Shown here: positions 24,267-40,709 of the stretch, piece by piece
How the letters are laid out: each line of letters begins with the position of its first letter
Numbering within the stretch: the first letter of the stretch is position 1
NCBI GenBank assembly: GCA_031414955.1
Contig: JANOQV010000113.1
Span: 1 to 40,709 of the forward strand
Length of the DNA: 40,709 nt
Direction of reading: 5' to 3'
DNA from: Pedosphaera sp.
Lineage (GTDB): Bacteria; Verrucomicrobiota; Verrucomicrobiia; Limisphaerales; SIBH01
Notes under the pieces: generated by a model
What the model was told of the DNA's origin: nothing
The model's input: only the letters and a program-made list of their open reading frames with translations
Database searches by the model: none
Translations under genes and position numbers: made by a program

Positions 24267-27200
24267 ATGACGCCAGCCGAATTCAAAAAGAAGTGGGCGA
24301 AGTACACCGGGAAAGAATCTTCGGCGTACCAAGAGCACTTCAACGACCTGTGCCATTTGCTCGGCCATCCCACGCCCGTCGAGGCCGATCCGAGCGGCAA
24401 AGATTTCTTCTGCTTTCAGAAGGGCGTGATCAAGGACTTGGAACTGCTGGGCCTGGATGAGGCCGAGACCACACCGCGCAAGAAGGGCTTCGCCGACGTG
24501 TGGAAGAAGGGCTGCTTCGGCTGGGAATACAAGGGCAAGCACAAGAACCTCGACGAGGCTTACAAGCAACTGCTCCGCTACCGGGAATCGTTGCTGAATC
24601 CGCCGTTGCTCGTGATTTGCGATTTTGACCGCTTCATCGTCAAAACGAATTTCAACGGCACGGTTCAGGAAATTTACGAGTTCACCAACGCGCACCTCGA
24701 CACGCCGGAAAACTGGCGTGTGCTCCGCTCCCTGTTTTTCGATCCTGGTTTCCTCAAGCCGCAGCGCACCACCGCCCAAGTCACGGAGACCCTCGCCACG
24801 ACCATCGCCGAGGTCGCGCAGTCGCTCCAGAAGCGTGAGAGCGTGGAACTGGCCGACGCCAAGACCCGCGCGGAAGTGAACTTCGCGCAACGGCGCAACC
24901 TCCGCATCGCCCGCTTCCTCAATCGCATCGTCTTTTGCTTCTTCGCCGAGGACACCGGCCTGCTGCCGAAAACCATTCTCGGCGACATCGCCAAAGCCTC
25001 CATCGACCAGCCAAAGTTCTTCGCCGAACGTCTGGAGGAATTGTTTGCGGTCATGGCCAGGGGCGGCGCGTCTGGTCATCACAAAATCCGCCACTGCCAC
25101 GGCCATCTCTTCGAGGACGCCACCGTGTTCGAGCTGACTGAGGACGAGATTCGGCTGCTCGCGAAAGCTTCCGAGTCCGACTGGCAGTTCATCGAACCCA
25201 CCATCTTCGGCACGCTCTTTGAGCGCGGTCTGGACCCTGACCAGCGCGCGCAACTGGGCGCGCACTTCACGAGTGAGCAGGACATCAGAACGCTGGTGGA
25301 ACCCGTGCTCATGGCTCCGCTCCGCCGCGAGTGGGCGGTGCTGAAAGGTGAACTCGCCACCGCCTTCAAGAAGGGCCAGGGCACGAAGGCCGACCGCGAC
25401 AAACTCGCCGCCTTCCTCAAAAGGCTTTCGGCCCTCACGGTGCTCGATCCTGCGTCGGGCAGCGGCAACTTCCTCTACGTCTCGCTGCGGCTGCTGCTCG
25501 ATCTGGAGAAGGAGGTCATCACCTTCGCGCTGCAACTCGGCTTCACCTTTCAGCCGCGGGTCAGCGTGCAGCAGCTCAAGGCCATCGAGATCAACCCCTA
25601 CGCCTACGAGCTGGCGCAGGTGTCCGTGCAAATCGGCTTTCTTCAATGGCGGCGGGACAACGGCTTCGACAACGACCGCACGCCCGTGTTGCAGAACCTC
25701 CAGGGCTTCGAGAACAAGGACGCCTTGATGCACGAGACGTTCCGCAAGAAGCCGAAGAACCTCAAAGCCGCGCGCAAGGAGGAGCACGAGTTCCAGGACA
25801 CGCTGTTCAAGGTGTACGTGGAACGCGCCTGGCCGGAATGCGATGTGATTGTGGGCAACCCGCCGTTTCTTGGGGGCGGGATGCTTCGCAGTCAACTCGG
25901 TGATGCGTACGTCAGTGAGTTGTTCAGCATGTTTGGCGCTCGTATCCCGAATTTCAGTGATCTCTGTTGCTATTGGTTTGAGAAGGCGCGCGATTTGATT
26001 GAACACGGCAAGTGCAAGCGCGCGGGCCTGCTGGCGACGCAGGGAATCCGTGGCGGGGCAAACCGTGAAGTGCTCAAAAGAGTCAAGGAATCAGGTGACA
26101 TCTTCTTTGCCATTAGTGACCGGGAATGGTTTCTCGACGGAGCAAACGTCCACGTCAGCCTGGTGGGCTTCGACAATGGGGATGAAGAAGACCGTTCGCT
26201 GGATGGTCATTCTGTTGATGTAATCAATGCGAATTTGACAACAAGCGCCGATGCGACAACCGCAGGGCCATTGAGTGAGAATCGCGGCGTCTGCTTTATG
26301 GGGCCGTCGCCAAAGGCTCCGTTTGATTTATCCGACGCACTCGCACTTTCCATGATTGGTAATGGCGGCAACGTGAATGGAAAACCAAATTCTGATGTCG
26401 TGAGGCGTGTGCAAAGCGGTGTCGATCTCACCAGTCGAGATCGGCGCGTGTGGACGCTTGATTTCAGTCTGATGGCCGCAGAGGAGGCCGCAAAATATGA
26501 AGCCCCGTTCGAGCACGCCACGAAGGAAGTCAAACCTCTACGCACTGGACGGAAGAGCCAGACGAACAAGAACTGGTGGCAGTTCGAGCGGCCTCGGGTT
26601 GAATTACGAAGGGTACTGAAAGGACAGTCGCGATTCATCGCGACTCCTGAAGTTGCCAAACATCGCATTTTCGTTTGGCGCTCGCCGGAGTTTCTCTGCA
26701 ATCAACAGACGCTCGTGTTTGCACGTTCTGATGATTTCTTCTTCGGTGTTCTTCATTCCCGCTTCCACGAAGTTTGGTCGCTGGCGCAAGGAACGCAACT
26801 GCGCGAGAAGGAATCTGGCTTTCGCTACACGCCGACAACTTGCTTTGAAACCTTCCCTTTTCCCTTTGCCGATGATTTGACCGAACCGCTCGACAACACC
26901 GAGGCCATGTTGAATGCGGCCAAGCATTACGCGCACATCGTGTTGCACGAGGAACCGCCGCCACGAACGCCCGAGGAACACCGCGCCGCCATCGCCGCCG
27001 CTGCCGAGGAACTGAACGAACTGCGCGAGCGTTGGCTGAATCCGCCGGAGTGGACCGCCGAGCGCCTCCTCGAATTCCCCGGCTCCACGGATGGCCCGTG
27101 GGCGCGCTACGTTCACAAGCCAAACAAGGACGGCATCGGCACCGTGCGTTATCCGCGCCTGGAACCGCGTGACGCCGAGTGCGCCGCGCAACTGAAAAAG

Positions 27201-27431
27201 CGCACGCTCACCAACCTCTACAACGAGCGCCCCGCGTGGCTGGACCTCGCCCACAAAAAACTGGATGCCGCCGTTGCCGCCGCCTACGGCTGGCCCGCCG
27301 ATTTAACCGACGAACAAATCCTCGAAAACCTTCTCGCCCTCAACCTCGCCCGCGCCGCCGAAGAAGCGAAAGCCGTCAAGGTGAAGAAGCCAAAGGCGAC
27401 ACGCGAGAGGCACGCGGATGAAATGATTTGA
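24267..27431 (+). CDS. MmeI-like (Type IIL/IIG) fused restriction endonuclease-adenine methyltransferase
   Basis: N-terminal FADVWKKGCFGWEYK nuclease-like motif; IFGTLFERGLDP, LGAHFT, VLDPASGSGNF (motif I), IVGNPPF (motif IV), C-terminal TLTNLYN...LDAAVAAAYGW. Confidence 0.9.
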   Translation: MTPAEFKKKWAKYTGKESSAYQEHFNDLCHLLGHPTPVEADPSGKDFFCFQKGVIKDLELLGLDEAETTPRKKGFADVWKKGCFGWEYKGKHKNLDEAYKQLLRYRESLLNPPLLVICDFDRFIVKTNFNGTVQEIYEFTNAHLDTPENWRVLRSLFFDPGFLKPQRTTAQVTETLATTIAEVAQSLQKRESVELADAKTRAEVNFAQRRNLRIARFLNRIVFCFFAEDTGLLPKTILGDIAKASIDQPKFFAERLEELFAVMARGGASGHHKIRHCHGHLFEDATVFELTEDEIRLLAKASESDWQFIEPTIFGTLFERGLDPDQRAQLGAHFTSEQDIRTLVEPVLMAPLRREWAVLKGELATAFKKGQGTKADRDKLAAFLKRLSALTVLDPASGSGNFLYVSLRLLLDLEKEVITFALQLGFTFQPRVSVQQLKAIEINPYAYELAQVSVQIGFLQWRRDNGFDNDRTPVLQNLQGFENKDALMHETFRKKPKNLKAARKEEHEFQDTLFKVYVERAWPECDVIVGNPPFLGGGMLRSQLGDAYVSELFSMFGARIPNFSDLCCYWFEKARDLIEHGKCKRAGLLATQGIRGGANREVLKRVKESGDIFFAISDREWFLDGANVHVSLVGFDNGDEEDRSLDGHSVDVINANLTTSADATTAGPLSENRGVCFMGPSPKAPFDLSDALALSMIGNGGNVNGKPNSDVVRRVQSGVDLTSRDRRVWTLDFSLMAAEEAAKYEAPFEHATKEVKPLRTGRKSQTNKNWWQFERPRVELRRVLKGQSRFIATPEVAKHRIFVWRSPEFLCNQQTLVFARSDDFFFGVLHSRFHEVWSLAQGTQLREKESGFRYTPTTCFETFPFPFADDLTEPLDNTEAMLNAAKHYAHIVLHEEPPPRTPEEHRAAIAAAAEELNELRERWLNPPEWTAERLLEFPGSTDGPWARYVHKPNKDGIGTVRYPRLEPRDAECAAQLKKRTLTNLYNERPAWLDLAHKKLDAAVAAAYGWPADLTDEQILENLLALNLARAAEEAKAVKVKKPKATRERHADEMI

Positions 27432-27477
27432 GCCGAGGCTGGCATGTTTGCTGCCTTCGCGTTAAATGATCGGAACG

Positions 27478-27702
27478 ATGAGCACAGCGGAACTCATTTT
27501 CGAGAAAGCGCGCAGCTTGCCGAGTGACAAGCAGAACGAGGCGTTGCGCTTCGTGGATTTCCTCCTGGCCCGCCGTTCCGCCGAAGCCGAGGCTGCCGAG
27601 TGGCGCAAGCTGCTCCGCGAGACGCAAAGCGCGCCCGGTGTTTCTGCCATCACCGACGACGACATTGCCTGTGAAGTCGCCGCCGTCCGCAACCGCCCAT
27701 GA
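27478..27702 (+). CDS. Putative antitoxin (DUF2281-like)
   Basis: Small protein with LPSDKQNEALRFVDFL; ATGA overlap with the PIN gene; start may be 27466. Confidence 0.7.
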   Translation: MSTAELIFEKARSLPSDKQNEALRFVDFLLARRSAEAEAAEWRKLLRETQSAPGVSAITDDDIACEVAAVRNRP

Positions 27703-28103
27703 GGGTGGTGGTGGATACAAACGTGGTGGTGTCGGCGATTCTCCGCGACCGCAACCCCGAAAAGGCCACCCTGCATCTGGTGGAAAATCCAGACTGCGAA
27801 TGGCTGGCCTCTGAAGAAATTCTGGCCGAGTACCGCGAGGTGATGCGCCGCCCGCGCTTTGGACTTTCGCCGGAAATCCTCACGCGTTGGGATGACCGTT
27901 TCCGCGAAGCCATCGCCGTCTGGCCCGTGACGGTGCCGGTGGATTTTCCGCGCGACCAGAAGGACGCGAAATTTCTCGCCTGCGTGCTGGCCTCCCAAGC
28001 CGATTACCTGCTCACAGGCGACCGTGACTTCGAGGAGACAAAGGCCTTCCCAAACGTGAAGATCATTTCCGTGAGCCGGTTCGTGGCGGAGTTCTGTCCG
28101 TAG
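27699..28103 (+). CDS. PIN-domain toxin (VapC-like, PIN_3 type)
   Basis: MRVVVDTNVVVSA, ILAEY, RDQKDAKFLACVLASQADYLLTGDRD. Confidence 0.9.
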   Translation: MRVVVDTNVVVSAILRDRNPEKATLHLVENPDCEWLASEEILAEYREVMRRPRFGLSPEILTRWDDRFREAIAVWPVTVPVDFPRDQKDAKFLACVLASQADYLLTGDRDFEETKAFPNVKIISVSRFVAEFCP

Positions 28104-28174
28104 TAGCAGACGCGATGATTTAATTTTGAGTGGGACCGTATTTGTCCGCCCACGGTCGGTAGGATCGCGCGCCT

Positions 28175-29005
28175 ATGGGACTGACAATTCATTATCGACT
28201 GAGCGCGCCCGCGGGTTCAGAGCGGAACGTGGCCTGGCAATTGGTGTCCGAGGCCGCGTGGGCTGCACAGCGGCGGGTGGCCTCGGGCGGTTTTCGCTCC
28301 GTCGGACACGTTGGCTGGAACGCAGAGCATCGGCGGTGGTCCCGGCGCTGGCGCGAAATACCGCTGCCCAGCGATCCCCCCGCCACTCCGGGTTGCATCT
28401 CTCGCAGCTACTACGACCTGGAAATCGAGCCGGCGGAGGGCTGCATGTTCGAGGTGGACGTGGGCCGCGATTGCGAGTTGTTGTCGGTGGGGTTGTGCCG
28501 GTATCCGCTGTCGCTGCCCATGCCGTGGCAGTTGCATGCGTGGCTCCCGCCGAACCGACGACGCCAGAAGATCAGCACGGGTCTGCCGCCCGGCTGGTAT
28601 TTTCACGGCTTCGCCAAGACTCAGTTTGCCAGCCTGCACGGCTGGGAATATTTCCGCCGCTGCCACGTCGGCATCATCGACTATCTCGCGGAGTTGAAGA
28701 CCATGGGCTGGGGCGTGCGCATCAGCGACGAGGGCGAATACGGGCCGCGCCGCTCGCTGACCAAGCTGCGCCGCAACATTGATGAAATGAACGGCGTGGT
28801 GGCCGCCGCCGCGGGCGCGTTGAAGGATCTGGATGAAGCGATTAATGGCACGGACGGGGTGCAGTCGCCCATTTTCGCGCACAAGGATTTCGAGCGATTG
28901 GAAGCGGCGGGCGAAGCGCGGGCGGGCGCGATGATTCGCGAAGCACGCGGGGAGATTTCCGGGTTGTTGCGAACGAAGGGCGGCAAAGGCAACGCAACCG
29001 GCTGA
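28175..29005 (+). CDS. Hypothetical protein (MGLTIHY...FAKTQFA...SDEGEY)
   Basis: 276-aa ORF with plausible codon usage; no function recognised. Confidence 0.7.
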   Translation: MGLTIHYRLSAPAGSERNVAWQLVSEAAWAAQRRVASGGFRSVGHVGWNAEHRRWSRRWREIPLPSDPPATPGCISRSYYDLEIEPAEGCMFEVDVGRDCELLSVGLCRYPLSLPMPWQLHAWLPPNRRRQKISTGLPPGWYFHGFAKTQFASLHGWEYFRRCHVGIIDYLAELKTMGWGVRISDEGEYGPRRSLTKLRRNIDEMNGVVAAAAGALKDLDEAINGTDGVQSPIFAHKDFERLEAAGEARAGAMIREARGEISGLLRTKGGKGNATG

Positions 29006-29051
29006 TCCTTGGACACAGGCGTGCCTAAGCCCCGGCCAGCCAGCAAACCGT

Positions 29052-29081
29052 TTGACACCGGGCGGAATCTTCACGAAATAT
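29052..29081 (+). promoter_or_regulatory. Probable sigma70 promoter for the tRNA
   Basis: Perfect TTGACA at 29052-29057; only a weak -10 (AAATAT) 18 nt downstream. Confidence 0.4.
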
Positions 29082-29096
29082 CCCGGCCCGATGGTT

Positions 29097-29171
<75 letters not shown>

Positions 29172-35959: not shown

Positions 35960-35974
35960 GAGGCCTTGCCCTCC

Positions 35975-36334
35975 ATGCGCGTTTGCCCAATAGCCTCCCT
36001 GGCCGTGCTCCTGATTCTGGGTGCCTGCTCATCGAAACAGTTGGCTCGAATCGCTCCGGCGGATCGCGTAGTTGCGGTCGATGAATCTGGCGCCCCAATG
36101 CTCACGGCAACCGGGGATAAAGCGGCGAAGCTGGTGCGAGCAGTTTCATCTGCGAAGCGCGATAACCTGCCCTACAAAGCAACCTTCTCGTGGAGTTTAC
36201 AGTTTTATCGCCGGACGAACCTCTTGGATGTTCTACGCTTTCAACAAAGCTTAGTAATTATTGACGGTAAGACTCACAACGATGGCAGCGGAGTGCTGGA
36301 TGCATTCAACGATCAGGTGCTGGCCGCGCGGTAA
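35975..36334 (+). CDS. Small putative lipoprotein, AT-richer than its flanks
   Basis: MRVCPIASLAVLLILGAC lipobox; 119 aa. Confidence 0.6.
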   Translation: MRVCPIASLAVLLILGACSSKQLARIAPADRVVAVDESGAPMLTATGDKAAKLVRAVSSAKRDNLPYKATFSWSLQFYRRTNLLDVLRFQQSLVIIDGKTHNDGSGVLDAFNDQVLAAR

Positions 36335-36583
36335 GGACCGAGAAACGGAAATGAGCGAATCCAATGCTGGTTAGGGAAACGCTGATCTGATCGAATCGCG
36401 TACTCAATGGAGGTGCCCGCTCAAATCGCCCGGCTTCGGCTAATCAAAAAAGCTCCACCGAACCGGCGTGTTGCGGGATAGACTCGGACCGATTGAAGTC
36501 GCAAGATGGCGTCGAGCCAAACACCTGACTGAGCGTTTGGCTTTGGAACCATGTTTTGCAAACCCGACATTTTGAGGGCGCTG

Positions 36584-39277
36584 ATGAAATGGCGCGTGTG
36601 GATTACTTTTGGTGCCCTACTGCAATTCGGCACGGTCCCGGTCGTATTCGCGGAGGTGGTTGTTCCTGGACTGGCTTCCAGCCAGCTCGAGCCGACGCTG
36701 AAAGGATTGGTGCTGATTGAGGAGTTGAATTGCGCGGCCTGCCACGCAGGCGATCCGTCCTTGGCGGCACGCTCGAAGAAGGCACCGCGACTTGCCGACA
36801 TCGGTTCGCGGGCGAATCCGGCATGGCTGGAGACGTTCATCGCCAATCCGCATGGGACCAAGCCTGGCACGACAATGCCGGATCTGCTCGGGCAATTGGG
36901 CGTGGAGGAAAAGAAGCAGACGGCGACGGCGCTCACGCACTTTTTGCTTTCGCTGAAAAAGAACGACTTCGCGCTGCAACCGCCGGATGCGGTGGCGGCG
37001 GGACATGGGATGCGGCTGTTTCATTCGCGCGGATGCGCGGCGTGTCACTCGCCTCGCGATGAAAAGGGCGCGGAGTTGCTGCCGAAGAATTCCGTTCCGC
37101 TCGGTGCGCTGGAGAAAAAATACAGCTTCAAAAGCCTCGTGGATTTTCTGCGCCAGCCGCACGCGAGCCGGCCCTCGGGAAGAATGCCGGACATGCGGCT
37201 CGCCGCGAAAGACGTGGAGCGCATCGCCCATTATCTACTCCAACACACGCGCGTGCCAGGCTCGCTCAGCTACACGTTTTATCGCGGAGAGGTGTGGGAG
37301 GGATTGGAGAGTGAGAAGGTGACGGCGGAGCGCGCGGGGCTTGTGAACGACTTTGCGCTGGAGAGCCTTGGCATGGGAAAAATCCCGCAGCACTCGGCGA
37401 TCAAATACGACGGCTGGTTGAACATCGCGGACGCGGGACGCCACACGTTTTCCCTCAAGATGAACGGCGGCTCGCTGCTCGTGGACGGAAAGCAAATCAT
37501 CCAGCAGGAGCCGAGCGACCGGCGCGGGGTGAAGGAACTGCAAGGCGTGGCGGAACTCGCGGCGGGTTGGCGCAAAATTCAGCTCACGTATTTTCACACG
37601 GGACGCGAGGCAAAGTTTTCGTGCGAGATGGAAGGGCCGCAGTTGAAGCGGGGACCGATTCCTTCGTCACGGCTTTCGATTTCCAACGAACCCATCGCGC
37701 CCTTCGAGCCGCTCAAGGTGAATGCGGAACTCGCGGCCCGTGGACGAGAGCATTTCGGCAAACTCGGCTGCGCGAATTGCCACGACGATCTCAAGGTGCC
37801 CGCGACGTCGGGCATCGCGTTGGCCAGGCTCGATGCGAGCCGCGGATGCCTCAGCGAAGCCGCCGGAGCGTGGCCGCGCTTCGACTTGAATGCGGAGCAA
37901 CGCACGGCCATCGCGAAGGCGCTGCCCAGCGCGGAGAAGCCGCAGCTCGACGACACGCAGCAAATCAACAAGACGCTCGCCACGTTCAACTGCATCGCGT
38001 GTCACGAACGCACGGGCCTCGGCGGAATCGCGCCGGAACGCAACGCGCTCTTCACCGGAACTCAACCGGCGCTCGGCGATCAAGGCCGCATCCCTCCGCC
38101 GCTCTCGCACGTCGGCGCGAAGCTGAAGCCCGAGTGGATCGCCGAAGTGCTGCTGCGCGGAAAACGTCAGCGCGCTTACGTGGATGCCGCGATGCCGCAG
38201 TTTGGCGAAGCGAACGTCGGGCATCTCGTGGAGTTGTTTGGTAAGGTCGATGCGCTGGAAGCGGCGACCATTCCTAAAGTGGCGAATGTTCAGGAGTCCA
38301 AAAATGCCGGCTACGAAATGATTGGCACCAGCGGACTGAGCTGCATCGTCTGCCATGAATTCAACGGCCAAAAATCCGGGGAGATGAGCGCGCTCGATCT
38401 CGCGCGTGTGTCCGAGCGGCTCAAGAAGAACTGGTTCCACCTCTACATGCGGCAGCCCTCGCGCTTCCACCCCACGGTAATCATGCCCATCTACTGGCCC
38501 GACGGTCAGTCCCCGCTTCCCAAGATTCTTGGCGGCGACGCTGGGCAGCAGATCGAAGCGCTCTGGACTTATTTGGAGGACGGCACTCGCGCGAAGAAAC
38601 CGGCCGGCCTTTCCCGTCAGTCGAACGAACTGCGCGTGGGCGACACCACCGAGATCTGCCGCGGGCAAAGCCCCGTGGGCTATCGCGGCATCGGCGTCGG
38701 CTATCCCGAGCGCATCAACCTCGCCTTCGACTCAGGCGAAATGGCGCTGCGCCAGCTTTGGAAAGGCGACTTCGCCACCGTGGACTCGGGCCATTTTCGA
38801 CCGCGCGGAACTGACTCCATTCCTTTTCCACCCGGCATTCCGTTTCACCGGTTGGAATCACTGGAGGACAATTGGCCCTACAAGGGGAAGGCCAACCATG
38901 CCTTCCCTCAGGATCATGGCTACCAGTTTCGCGGCTATCATCTGGATGCCGCGCGCAGACCGACGCTCCTCTACCACTACGGCGACATTGCGGTGGAGGA
39001 CTTCTTCGAGGATGCGCGCGACAAGGACGGCAAAGCCTACTTCAAACGCACGCTCCGCTTCGACACGCCCGCAGAGCAAACACCGTTCTATTTTCGCGCC
39101 GCCGCCGGGAAAAAAATCACTGCTGCCGGCGACCGCACATTCACCGCGGACAAACTCCAGGTCCGCATCACCAGCGACCACAAGGGCATCGTCCGCGAAG
39201 GCGAAAACGGCGACGTGTTGATCCCGTTGACCCTGCCCAAAGGGCGCTCCACTCTCACGCTGGAATACCAATGGTAA
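36584..39277 (+). CDS. Multiheme (5 CxxCH) cytochrome c protein with a PA14-like domain
   Basis: CAACH x2, CANCH, CIACH, CIVCH with distal MP motifs; signal peptide; GAGGG RBS before ATG 36584 (36551 is an alternative). Confidence 0.88.
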   Translation: MKWRVWITFGALLQFGTVPVVFAEVVVPGLASSQLEPTLKGLVLIEELNCAACHAGDPSLAARSKKAPRLADIGSRANPAWLETFIANPHGTKPGTTMPDLLGQLGVEEKKQTATALTHFLLSLKKNDFALQPPDAVAAGHGMRLFHSRGCAACHSPRDEKGAELLPKNSVPLGALEKKYSFKSLVDFLRQPHASRPSGRMPDMRLAAKDVERIAHYLLQHTRVPGSLSYTFYRGEVWEGLESEKVTAERAGLVNDFALESLGMGKIPQHSAIKYDGWLNIADAGRHTFSLKMNGGSLLVDGKQIIQQEPSDRRGVKELQGVAELAAGWRKIQLTYFHTGREAKFSCEMEGPQLKRGPIPSSRLSISNEPIAPFEPLKVNAELAARGREHFGKLGCANCHDDLKVPATSGIALARLDASRGCLSEAAGAWPRFDLNAEQRTAIAKALPSAEKPQLDDTQQINKTLATFNCIACHERTGLGGIAPERNALFTGTQPALGDQGRIPPPLSHVGAKLKPEWIAEVLLRGKRQRAYVDAAMPQFGEANVGHLVELFGKVDALEAATIPKVANVQESKNAGYEMIGTSGLSCIVCHEFNGQKSGEMSALDLARVSERLKKNWFHLYMRQPSRFHPTVIMPIYWPDGQSPLPKILGGDAGQQIEALWTYLEDGTRAKKPAGLSRQSNELRVGDTTEICRGQSPVGYRGIGVGYPERINLAFDSGEMALRQLWKGDFATVDSGHFRPRGTDSIPFPPGIPFHRLESLEDNWPYKGKANHAFPQDHGYQFRGYHLDAARRPTLLYHYGDIAVEDFFEDARDKDGKAYFKRTLRFDTPAEQTPFYFRAAAGKKITAAGDRTFTADKLQVRITSDHKGIVREGENGDVLIPLTLPKGRSTLTLEYQW
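39218..39277 (+). repeat. Direct repeat copy 1 (last 20 codons of the cytochrome gene)
   Basis: 52/60 nt identical to 40043-40102; encodes LIPLTLPKGRSTLTLEYQW*. Confidence 0.95.
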
Positions 39278-39305
39278 GCACGCGAGCGATCAGCCTAACT
39301 ACAAC

Positions 39306-39986
39306 ATGAACCCGGAACTCAGGAACGTTTCAGAGCAAATGAAGGCCCTCGGGCTAGGAGCGTTGACACATGCACTCCGACTGTCGCTCTATTCGGCACA
39401 GGAGAATCCTTCGTGGGGAGACCTTTCAGTGCTTAACGCCGCCCACGCTGCAGAAATCTTGATCAAGGCGCGGTTGGCCGCCGAGCACCCCCTCCTGATT
39501 TTCACGCAGATCCCAAAATCGACACAGGTGGACGGCACGATGTTGGATTTTGAGGATCTATTTGCTCGTGGTCAGACGATAGACTTTCAAGATTTACCAG
39601 AGCGATTGTGGGCGGCAACAGGCCTTCGCTTGCCGAATGTCGATATCTACGCGGGCTTTGGAAAATTGCGGAACGCGATACAACACTTTGCTCCACCGAC
39701 GGAGGACTCGGGGACTAGAACTCTTGAGTTTGTGTTCCGTGTTCTCGATCCATTCATCTTTCAAGCGTGGGGTCTATACGCAATCGACTTCAATGAAGAG
39801 TTCGGTGATCACTACGAGCATATTTTTGAAGGCCTCGTTCATTCCAACATACGTCCCCTGATCTCACCCGATGCAGCTAAGGTTTGGAGCGAGCTAAACT
39901 ACCAACCAGCCAAAGACGCTCCACCCGGATATGCGAAGTGGTTCAAGACAGCCATGAAAGTTGCGTTAGCGAAATGCCCGCAATGA
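39306..39986 (+). CDS. Putative HEPN-domain protein (candidate RNase/defence gene), low GC
   Basis: AHAAEILIKARLAAEHPLLIF helix and RNAIQH (RX4H) motif; atypical codon usage. Confidence 0.65.
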   Translation: MNPELRNVSEQMKALGLGALTHALRLSLYSAQENPSWGDLSVLNAAHAAEILIKARLAAEHPLLIFTQIPKSTQVDGTMLDFEDLFARGQTIDFQDLPERLWAATGLRLPNVDIYAGFGKLRNAIQHFAPPTEDSGTRTLEFVFRVLDPFIFQAWGLYAIDFNEEFGDHYEHIFEGLVHSNIRPLISPDAAKVWSELNYQPAKDAPPGYAKWFKTAMKVALAKCPQ

Positions 39987-40042
39987 TTGCAAAAGCAAAC
40001 AGCTATGATCTTTCAAAGGTCGTTCGCGAGCCTCGAAGAGGG

Positions 40043-40102
40043 CTGATTCCCCTGACCCTGCCCAAAGGCCGCTCCACTCTTACTCTCGAATACCAATGGT
40101 AA
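40043..40102 (+). repeat. Direct repeat copy 2, inside mini-ORF 39983-40102
   Basis: Same peptide as copy 1 with 8 differences, all synonymous. Confidence 0.95.
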
Positions 40103-40709
40103 GGACACAACGCATCATCGCACTCGCCGTTCTCGTCGTGGCACCGCATCTCCGCGCCGCCGAAGACCTCGGGGCCATGTGGGGCACCGCGGCGGAGGAG
40201 GCGAAGTATTATCCCATCCTGAATATCCCCATTCCCTCCACCGTGCCCATGCGGCCGGGCGGGTTGGAGAGCTTGCCGGACGGACGTCTCGCGGTCGGCA
40301 CACGGCGCGGCGACATCTATTTCGTGAAGGGCGCGTTCGATTCACCGCCGAAGCCCGAGTTTCACCTCTTCGCCAGCGGGCAGGACGAAATCTTCACCCT
40401 CTCGTGGCGCTCCGGCGCGATGACCGCCATCACCTGGGGCGAAGCCACGCGCATCACCGACACCGACGGCGATGAAGTCGCCGACCGCTACGACACGCTG
40501 ACGAGCAACTGGGGCTACGCCGAGGGGCACGAATTCGCCTTTGGTTCCAAGCACGATCCCGAGGGCAACATCTGGGTGGCCTTGGGCCTGAGCGGTTCGT
40601 ATGAATCGCACAATCTTTTCCGCGGTTGGGCGGTGAAAGTGACGCCGCAGGGAAAGATGATTCCGATTTGCAGCGGACTGCGCAGCCCCGGCGGCGTGGG
40701 CGCGAATGC
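40096..40709 (+). CDS. Secreted beta-propeller protein (glucose/sorbosone dehydrogenase-like), partial
   Basis: My translation: MVRTQRIIALAVLVVAPHLRAAEDLG...LPDGRLAVGTRRGDIY...DTDGDEVAD...HEFAFG...RGWAVKVTPQGKMIPICSGLRSPGG; open to window end. Confidence 0.8.
   Translation, partial: MVRTQRIIALAVLVVAPHLRAAEDLGAMWGTAAEEAKYYPILNIPIPSTVPMRPGGLESLPDGRLAVGTRRGDIYFVKGAFDSPPKPEFHLFASGQDEIFTLSWRSGAMTAITWGEATRITDTDGDEVADRYDTLTSNWGYAEGHEFAFGSKHDPEGNIWVALGLSGSYESHNLFRGWAVKVTPQGKMIPICSGLRSPGGVGAN

Follow-up and report, generated by a model that had tools for sequence, protein, structure and literature searches.

How does a single gene of foreign origin come to lie inside a bacterial operon, between two copies of the end of the gene that precedes it, with no integrase in sight? 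The question is raised by contig JANOQV010000113.1 of Pedosphaera sp. (assembly GCA_031414955.1), from a draft genome of 6.55 Mb and 62% GC. The window analysed is this entire contig (G000:C113, 40,709 nucleotides); G000 is the genome under study, other G numbers are other genomes and L numbers are loci compared. The insertion target is the 3' end of a host gene for a multiheme cytochrome c. Its last 60 bp are present twice, with a spacing of 825 bp: copy 1 ends the cytochrome gene, copy 2 runs uninterrupted into the start of the resident beta-propeller-like gene, and a single gene, the cargo, lies between them (Table 1). An initial annotation made from the sequence alone had described a chain of cytochrome gene, mini-open reading frame (mini-ORF) 1, cargo, mini-ORF 2 and propeller gene, and its coordinates, both ATGA overlaps and the propeller start were found again. 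No integrase or transposase family was detected among the called window genes scanned, as had been noted there; the contig stops about 600 bp past the right junction, which limits the view of the downstream neighbours. The observation as a whole was confirmed.

Homologous recombination probably brought the insert into the operon; it would have taken place within the conserved final 60 bases of the cytochrome gene and needed no recombinase supplied by the insert. This reading is carried by the duplication itself, by an empty site in relatives, by the foreign nature of the cargo and by the hybrid look of the two copies. The empty site and the foreign cargo also support the earlier proposal of a recombination-borne cassette that had brought a diverged homologous junction with it.

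Both copies translate to LIPLTLPKGRSTLTLEYQW* and differ at eight bases in eight codons, all synonymously (87% identity, longest perfect match 16 bp). No other part of the genome holds a copy (blastn: E 2e-14 for the repeat, E 0.005 for the next match). A weaker similarity upstream of the copies (IVRE/VVRE) had also been claimed. With p values of 0.04 (compared to shuffled sequence) and 0.23 (compared to segments of the genome) it was not significant, and the extension was rejected as part of the repeat. Nor was the synonymous-only divergence as special as had been supposed: 311 of 1355 ortholog tail pairs with seven to nine base differences (23%) were likewise without amino-acid change. Such differences are ordinary ortholog divergence, and selection on the mini-peptide was rejected as a conclusion from them.

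Compared with relatives, the copies look like resident/foreign hybrids, copy 1 being resident on its 5' side and foreign on its 3' side, copy 2 the other way round. At the eight diagnostic sites the closest locus, L031, follows copies 1, 1, 1, 2, 2, 1, 2 and 2, and then copy 2 at 22 of 24 further bases. The first nine bases of copy 1 are carried by the two closest distinct junctions, L031 and L035, and this 9-mer occurs in 11 of 135 junctions. By its score, what follows copy 1 is a propeller start, though one that differs from the resident start. The suggested resemblance of mini-ORF 1 to the propeller N-terminus held up: its residues 3-7 reach the median score of 68 genuine propeller heads (random sequence: p 0.002), as do 2 of 62 non-coupled loci. 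In mini-ORF 1, the first ~7 codons probably remain from the start of a foreign propeller allele. Taken with this foreign start, the hybrid look of the copies suggests a crossover inside the tail.

The empty site was sought among ortholog loci with an identity of 55% or more, which number 164 without dereplication; by their titles, homologous loci are mostly of Verrucomicrobiota type. Direct coupling of cytochrome and propeller genes was seen in 83 of the 164, a short spacer in 28 and a long gap in 19, and in 34 there was no propeller gene in the DNA examined. A coupled empty junction was present in L031, whose identity to the two flanks is 95.1% and 94.3%, and also in L033, L040 and G002. Alternative cargo was found at the same junction as well: in G012 (L004; L077 gave identical output and was counted once) a PIN gene cassette with 912-bp spacing carries a short duplication of tail plus start. 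Eight other loci (L036, L037, L054, L055, L080, L089, L100 and L145) hold other inserts at this junction with no detectable tail repeat; by their sequences, the ORFs of these inserts look peptidase-like, GNAT-like and GxxExxY-like. None of the 19 long-gap loci showed an obvious integrase-bearing form, as judged from reading ORF starts and not from a Pfam scan. Related alleles are numerous in the sequenced samples, and L031-type pieces were present, none of them with 31 bases on both sides of the junction by which empty and filled alleles could be placed in one sample.

The cargo gene is foreign. It had been described as a low-GC gene, and the insert has a GC content of 0.52 and a GC content at third codon positions of 0.56. 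The latter has a median of 0.80 over the genome, which places the insert in the lowest 0.3% of the 3347 genes. The family was found in 1 of 400 sampled genomes of the order and in 0 of 400 of the phylum. Relatives of the cargo number 867; those with 76-81% identity occur elsewhere (80% in Sorangium), and relatives are present on eight plasmids.

Table 1. Features of the insertion locus, in window coordinates
Feature	Position	Strand	Remarks
Multiheme cytochrome c / PA14 gene, 908 aa	36551..39277	+	Pfam Cytochrom_C E 5e-22, weak PA14
Copy 1, working tail	39218..39277	+	First 9 bases resident-type; 3'-ward unlike closest relatives
Mini-ORF 1, 12 aa	39271..39309	+	Stop overlaps cargo start (ATGA)
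Cargo, 226-aa stand-alone protein of predicted HEPN fold	39306..39986	+	E50/K54, R122-N123-H127, ~70-aa C-terminal extension
Spacer	39987..40042	+	Unrelated to cytochrome gene, 29% identity in register
Mini-ORF 2, 39 aa	39983..40102	+	Start in ATGA overlap with cargo stop; reads orphan tail in frame
Copy 2, orphan tail	40043..40102	+	First 9 bases unlike closest relatives; 3' end resident-type
Resident secreted beta-propeller-like gene	40096..40709	+	Weak DUF7133 / PVC heme-binding N-terminal match

The cytochrome gene may alternatively start at 36584. The end of mini-ORF 2 overlaps the start of the propeller gene at 40096, and the latter, cut off by the contig end, has 94% nucleotide identity to L031.

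In the favoured mechanism, the incoming DNA would have held the cargo already between two arms derived from another lineage's junction, each arm made up of the tail and the opening ~15-20 bases of the propeller gene. Crossing over within the tail would then give copy 1 its resident 5' and foreign 3' parts and copy 2 its foreign 5' and resident 3' parts. Two routes would fit the data equally: one crossover with a circular molecule, or two with a linear one followed by homogenisation of its flanks. The genes comEC and dprA are present in the genome. None of its eight tyrosine-integrase matches is on a contig with an orphan-tail locus, that is, a locus with a displaced gene end such as copy 2.

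The locus is not an isolated case. With 60-base probes drawn from 3842 called genes, a minimum of 46 matching bases and a range of 6 kb, orphan tails were found downstream of 17 genes and upstream of one, and orphan gene heads upstream of five genes and downstream of one, compared to none for mid-gene probes. Fourteen of the 17 orphan-tail genes have cargo between gene and orphan. Three loci were dropped (C267, C40:53003 and C142), one as a probable diversity-generating retroelement and two for want of clear cargo. The 14 genes with cargo include lepA, lysS, thrS, ispH, an aldehyde dehydrogenase gene and DUF1501/DUF1553 genes. At the 13 sister loci, eight cargoes contain PIN, MazF or RelE toxin genes, two contain DNA methylases, one is an AAA-DUF4143 gene and two were without family assignment.

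Within the genus, an orphan lysS tail was observed within 1.5 kb at 8 of 8 loci, compared to 2 of 22 others, and an orphan lepA tail at 3 of 5 loci, compared to 0 of 19 others; for ispH the count was 1 of 28, and thrS fragments are recurrent in most genus genomes. Counts between genomes are too few for a comparison: 17 of 3797 in G000 (at least four doubtful), 1 of 734 in G002 and 1 of 707 in G059 (a tandem duplication). The initial annotation could see neither that its proposed recombination-borne cassette belongs to a pattern repeated across the genome and the genus, in which toxin-antitoxin and defence cassettes are added behind the ends of conserved genes, nor that the cargo is HEPN-like.

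Some of these loci form arrays. In G000:C83:1-11169 (L194, L195), lysS and thrS face each other across ~9.6 kb of cassettes, and four lysS and five thrS tail matches separate toxin-antitoxin, methylase and other genes, making the array two-sided. Two-cassette arrays lie behind ispH (G000:C280:3538-6322) and behind a DUF1501 gene (C159:1860-5838), with an orphan tail for each cassette. The same small two-gene cassette, with a near-identical orphan edge, is found behind lysS in L243 (G015) and L246 (G030), from two families, a likeness that gives a hint of cassette transfer together with the tail. In mirror cases an orphan gene start lies upstream of the full gene (G000:C11:42907-45628, C90:3431-7407 and C184:136599-137772); these enclose a UPF0175/DUF3368 pair or a RhuM-family gene, and C184 has no called cargo. 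Two small gene pairs (AF2212-like, YafQ) at G000:C3:12297-14033 lie between the three copies of a repeat of 113-180 bp, and no matching upstream gene was found among the gene calls. The dropped locus G000:C267:10284-13428 repeats a gene end with changes concentrated at adenine-rich codons, next to ORFs of 154 aa and 430 aa; by this pattern it looks like a diversity-generating retroelement.

A more general model can be offered only tentatively. In this genus, conserved gene ends could serve as attachment sites that need no recombinase; toxin-antitoxin and defence cassettes would carry a copy of the tail and stack into integron-like arrays behind lysS, thrS, ispH and further genes, and the orphan would be kept as the arm for the next transfer. 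As Shine-Dalgarno motifs are little used in this genome, cassettes whose orphan passes ribosomes on to the following gene would be favoured.

Several points weigh against homologous recombination in the cytochrome tail. The hybrid pattern consists of few third-position sites from two related genomes, and one site is discordant. L031 is not the true recipient, its genome matching the neighbouring gene at 75% only; because of this low match, the cytochrome-propeller operon itself appears to move between lineages. No exact donor was found, as the best match to the tail of copy 1 differs at 3 of 60 bases and has unrelated sequence downstream. The presence of comEC and dprA is no proof of competence, since both are also found in 10 of 14 control genomes. 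A perfect match of 16 bp is short for RecA, which has a threshold of ~20-30 bp. Excision between the repeats, as the initial annotation had suggested, is possible in principle, but neither an excised circle nor an excision joint was seen in the assembled contigs, which drop rare forms. Finally, at lysS in G000, G003 and G007 a divergent working tail is accompanied by a long orphan that is genus-typical throughout.

This last pattern, and the finding of the same lysS cargo with a long orphan in some genomes and a short one in others, points to one-sided displacement with later trimming in those three genomes. For the cytochrome locus, displacement by homology-facilitated illegitimate recombination is rather unlikely. 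The donor DNA would have found its anchor in the cytochrome gene, carried in a tail and cargo of its own and been joined by an illegitimate event 60 bases ahead of the resident stop, which predicts a copy 2 that is wholly resident and a copy 1 from the donor. Copy 2 does begin abruptly, and the mechanism has been proposed for arrays of T6SS (type VI secretion system) and of Rhs genes in the account of Kirchberger 2017 (PMC5361080). However, the first three codons of copy 2 encode LIP and yet differ from L031 and L035 at three sites at which copy 1 agrees with them. Displacement also needs a donor cargo already ~30 bases inside the propeller start, i.e. a second event.

It is improbable that the insert is the remnant of an integrase-driven island, whose attachment site would have held a replacement gene end and which would have decayed to one gene or been mobilised in trans. 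Site-specific integration leaves hybrid left and right ends of the kind seen here, and the genome has eight tyrosine-recombinase matches, but neither the window nor the cargo of the sister loci yielded an integrase. Many integrases would moreover be required for fourteen target genes that are unrelated, and the orphan length at one target ranges from ~74 to more than 330 bases.

Duplication in place with subsequent divergence, the orphan being kept by selection on the 39-aa peptide, is a decidedly poor explanation. It would account for an orphan in an open, coupled frame with synonymous differences only. However, 23% of comparable ortholog pairs also have no other differences, the copies differ by 13%, compared to 5% for the flanks of the relative, a different propeller allele follows copy 1, and many orphans elsewhere contain stops or frameshifts.

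A chimeric assembly of two strains, which had been named as the finding that would overturn the insertion, could be suspected from the 5.8% contamination of the draft genome and the many related alleles, but Logan contigs of 932 and 964 bp from separate public runs (two runs of one study) cross both junctions with 0 differences, and a chimera is therefore very unlikely. A third run shows this joint too, and a second study has a run in which the left junction (1 difference) and the right one (11 differences) lie on different pieces. One among all these runs may be the source sample of the genome.

Among known systems, insertion with long target duplication comes closest; it is described for restriction-modification genes by Furuta, Abe and Kobayashi 2010 (PMC2853133), and the layout fits its structural criteria. 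As in that system, direct repeats of more than 30 bp flank the insert (here 60 bp, 87%), relatives have a one-copy empty site (L031, L033, L040, G002), and the insert is below 20 kb and has no mobility gene (here 825 bp, one gene). In the part of that paper used here, repeats often span a start or stop site, operon insertions occur and most hosts are naturally competent. Restriction-modification cargo also belongs to the criteria; the present cargo is HEPN-like, and the insert behaves like this class without being a restriction-modification member. The sister loci carry toxin-antitoxin pairs and, in two cases, DNA methylases. The copies here are 87% identical and apparently come from two lineages, compared to 44/46 to 47/47 in Table 2 of PMC2853133, with looser values in Table 3. 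A further difference is that the layout recurs at 14 genes of one genome, forming arrays.

The T6SS effector-immunity and Rhs displacement arrays (PMC5361080) are alike in that new modules are added next to an anchor that is conserved, older sequence is shifted downstream and arrays grow with no integrase. In contrast to those arrays, the targets here are housekeeping or metabolic genes whose protein sequence is kept, and the displaced piece is a near-synonymous tail, whereas there it is the variable toxin tip. Homology-assisted illegitimate recombination is given as a source of small variable segments in the portion of PMC2884548 drawn on.

Integrase islands restore their target gene with a replacement 3' end, leaving a working foreign tail upstream and the displaced tail downstream. 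The present locus resembles them in this respect, but the insert is 825 bp, integrase is lacking, and boundaries are variable and the targets many and unrelated. The literature search returned no paper on genome-wide tail-flanked toxin-antitoxin arrays, on relay ORFs or on islands with such replacement ends, most subscription papers being outside its scope.

Both host genes stay intact at the locus, and no promoter-like or terminator-like site was found within the insert; the cargo is likely transcribed from the operon promoter. RNA runs contained only small parts of the stretch. Re-initiation of translation (PMC6728339) is a plausible route at this locus because Shine-Dalgarno motifs are hardly used in the genome (10.9% of 3361 ATG starts compared to a background of 9.2%) and the -4 (ATGA-type) overlap is the commonest gene junction, and the cargo may be translated in this way.

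The chance of a relay overlap by itself is ~0.18 for mini-ORF 1 and, for that gap, ~0.19 for mini-ORF 2. A relay, i.e. an in-frame start beside the cargo stop, was observed at 9 of 15 loci in a first pass, with 2.8 expected, and at 10 of 20 after five more cases. Leaving out the present locus gave 9 of 19, with 3.7 expected (p ~0.005), in a set whose cargo ends were hand-picked after the data had been viewed, and from which cargo stops inside or at the edge of an orphan were omitted as by-products. Among held-out thrS orphans the relay was found in 3 of 12, with 1.8 expected (p 0.27), and two of these three had been counted before. New thrS cases, with cargo picked automatically, gave 1 of 10 and no enrichment, and the PIN cassette of G012 has no relay ORF. 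The relay was consequently rejected as a general rule, being enriched in the curated set and not in the held-out cases. It may help at this locus, and selection for it is plausible but unproven.

The cargo had no Pfam or NCBIfam match. PADLOC gave weak matches to PDC-S64 (E 5e-7), DUF3644 (0.003) and HEC-08. The PDC-S64 profile matches 71 of 72 family members, but over ~90 of its 339 positions, and DUF3644 matches 56 of 72, weakly. Among 72 aligned relatives, E50, K54, R122 and N123 are invariant and H127 is found in at least 90%. The sequence contains the features given for HEPN RNases in the part of PMC3710099 used (Ex3K and Rx4H): Ex3[KR] as E50/K54, and Rx4-6H with a polar residue after the arginine as R122-N123-H127. 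Residues 1-157 of the structure model (pLDDT 92) match HEPN structures best. In the VIA ranking 4nqf was first (Z 12.3, rmsd 2.7, 124 aligned), followed by 2hsb (12.1) and 8xdj (11.4), and the top 11 are mostly HEPN-titled or HEPN-related chains; the best Z is below the caution line for helical bundles of about Z 13. A Foldseek search with the model gave no significant match.

The cargo resembles the DUF3644 / HEC-08 / PDC-S64 group of the HEPN superfamily in its Ex3K motif, its Rx4H motif with a polar residue after the arginine and its four-helix fold. It differs in its weak profile matches, in having no zinc-finger C-terminus and in the lack of an antitoxin gene within the cassette. Phage defence by HEC-08 depends on the motif histidine in the portion of the preprint used (bioRxiv 2024.01.29.577857). 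On its motifs, the cargo is a predicted RNase, and its family of stand-alone, predicted HEPN-fold proteins is a candidate for defence. A relative of the cargo in G534 sits among nuclease-like genes, with no internal repeat reported there.

Elsewhere in the window, a small defence cluster (24267-29171) contains an MmeI-like restriction-modification gene, a PIN toxin-antitoxin pair and a 276-aa gene that ends just before a tRNA-Met gene (29097-29171). Upstream of the cytochrome gene, positions 35966-36550 have lower GC and a 122-aa lipoprotein-like ORF. In G008 different genes follow the preceding TIM-barrel gene, and the cytochrome operon therefore seems to be a later arrival in the window.

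Taken alone, the locus is plainly a scar of recombination, of a sort already described. What makes it valuable is the pattern, in which a lineage repeatedly gains toxin-antitoxin and defence genes right behind housekeeping genes with no integrase, and it is the genus-wide arrays that deserve following up. The pattern offers many natural replicates on how accessory genes first enter empty sites. If orphan tails are indeed reusable recombination arms, the arrays would be a host-recombination counterpart of integron arrays.

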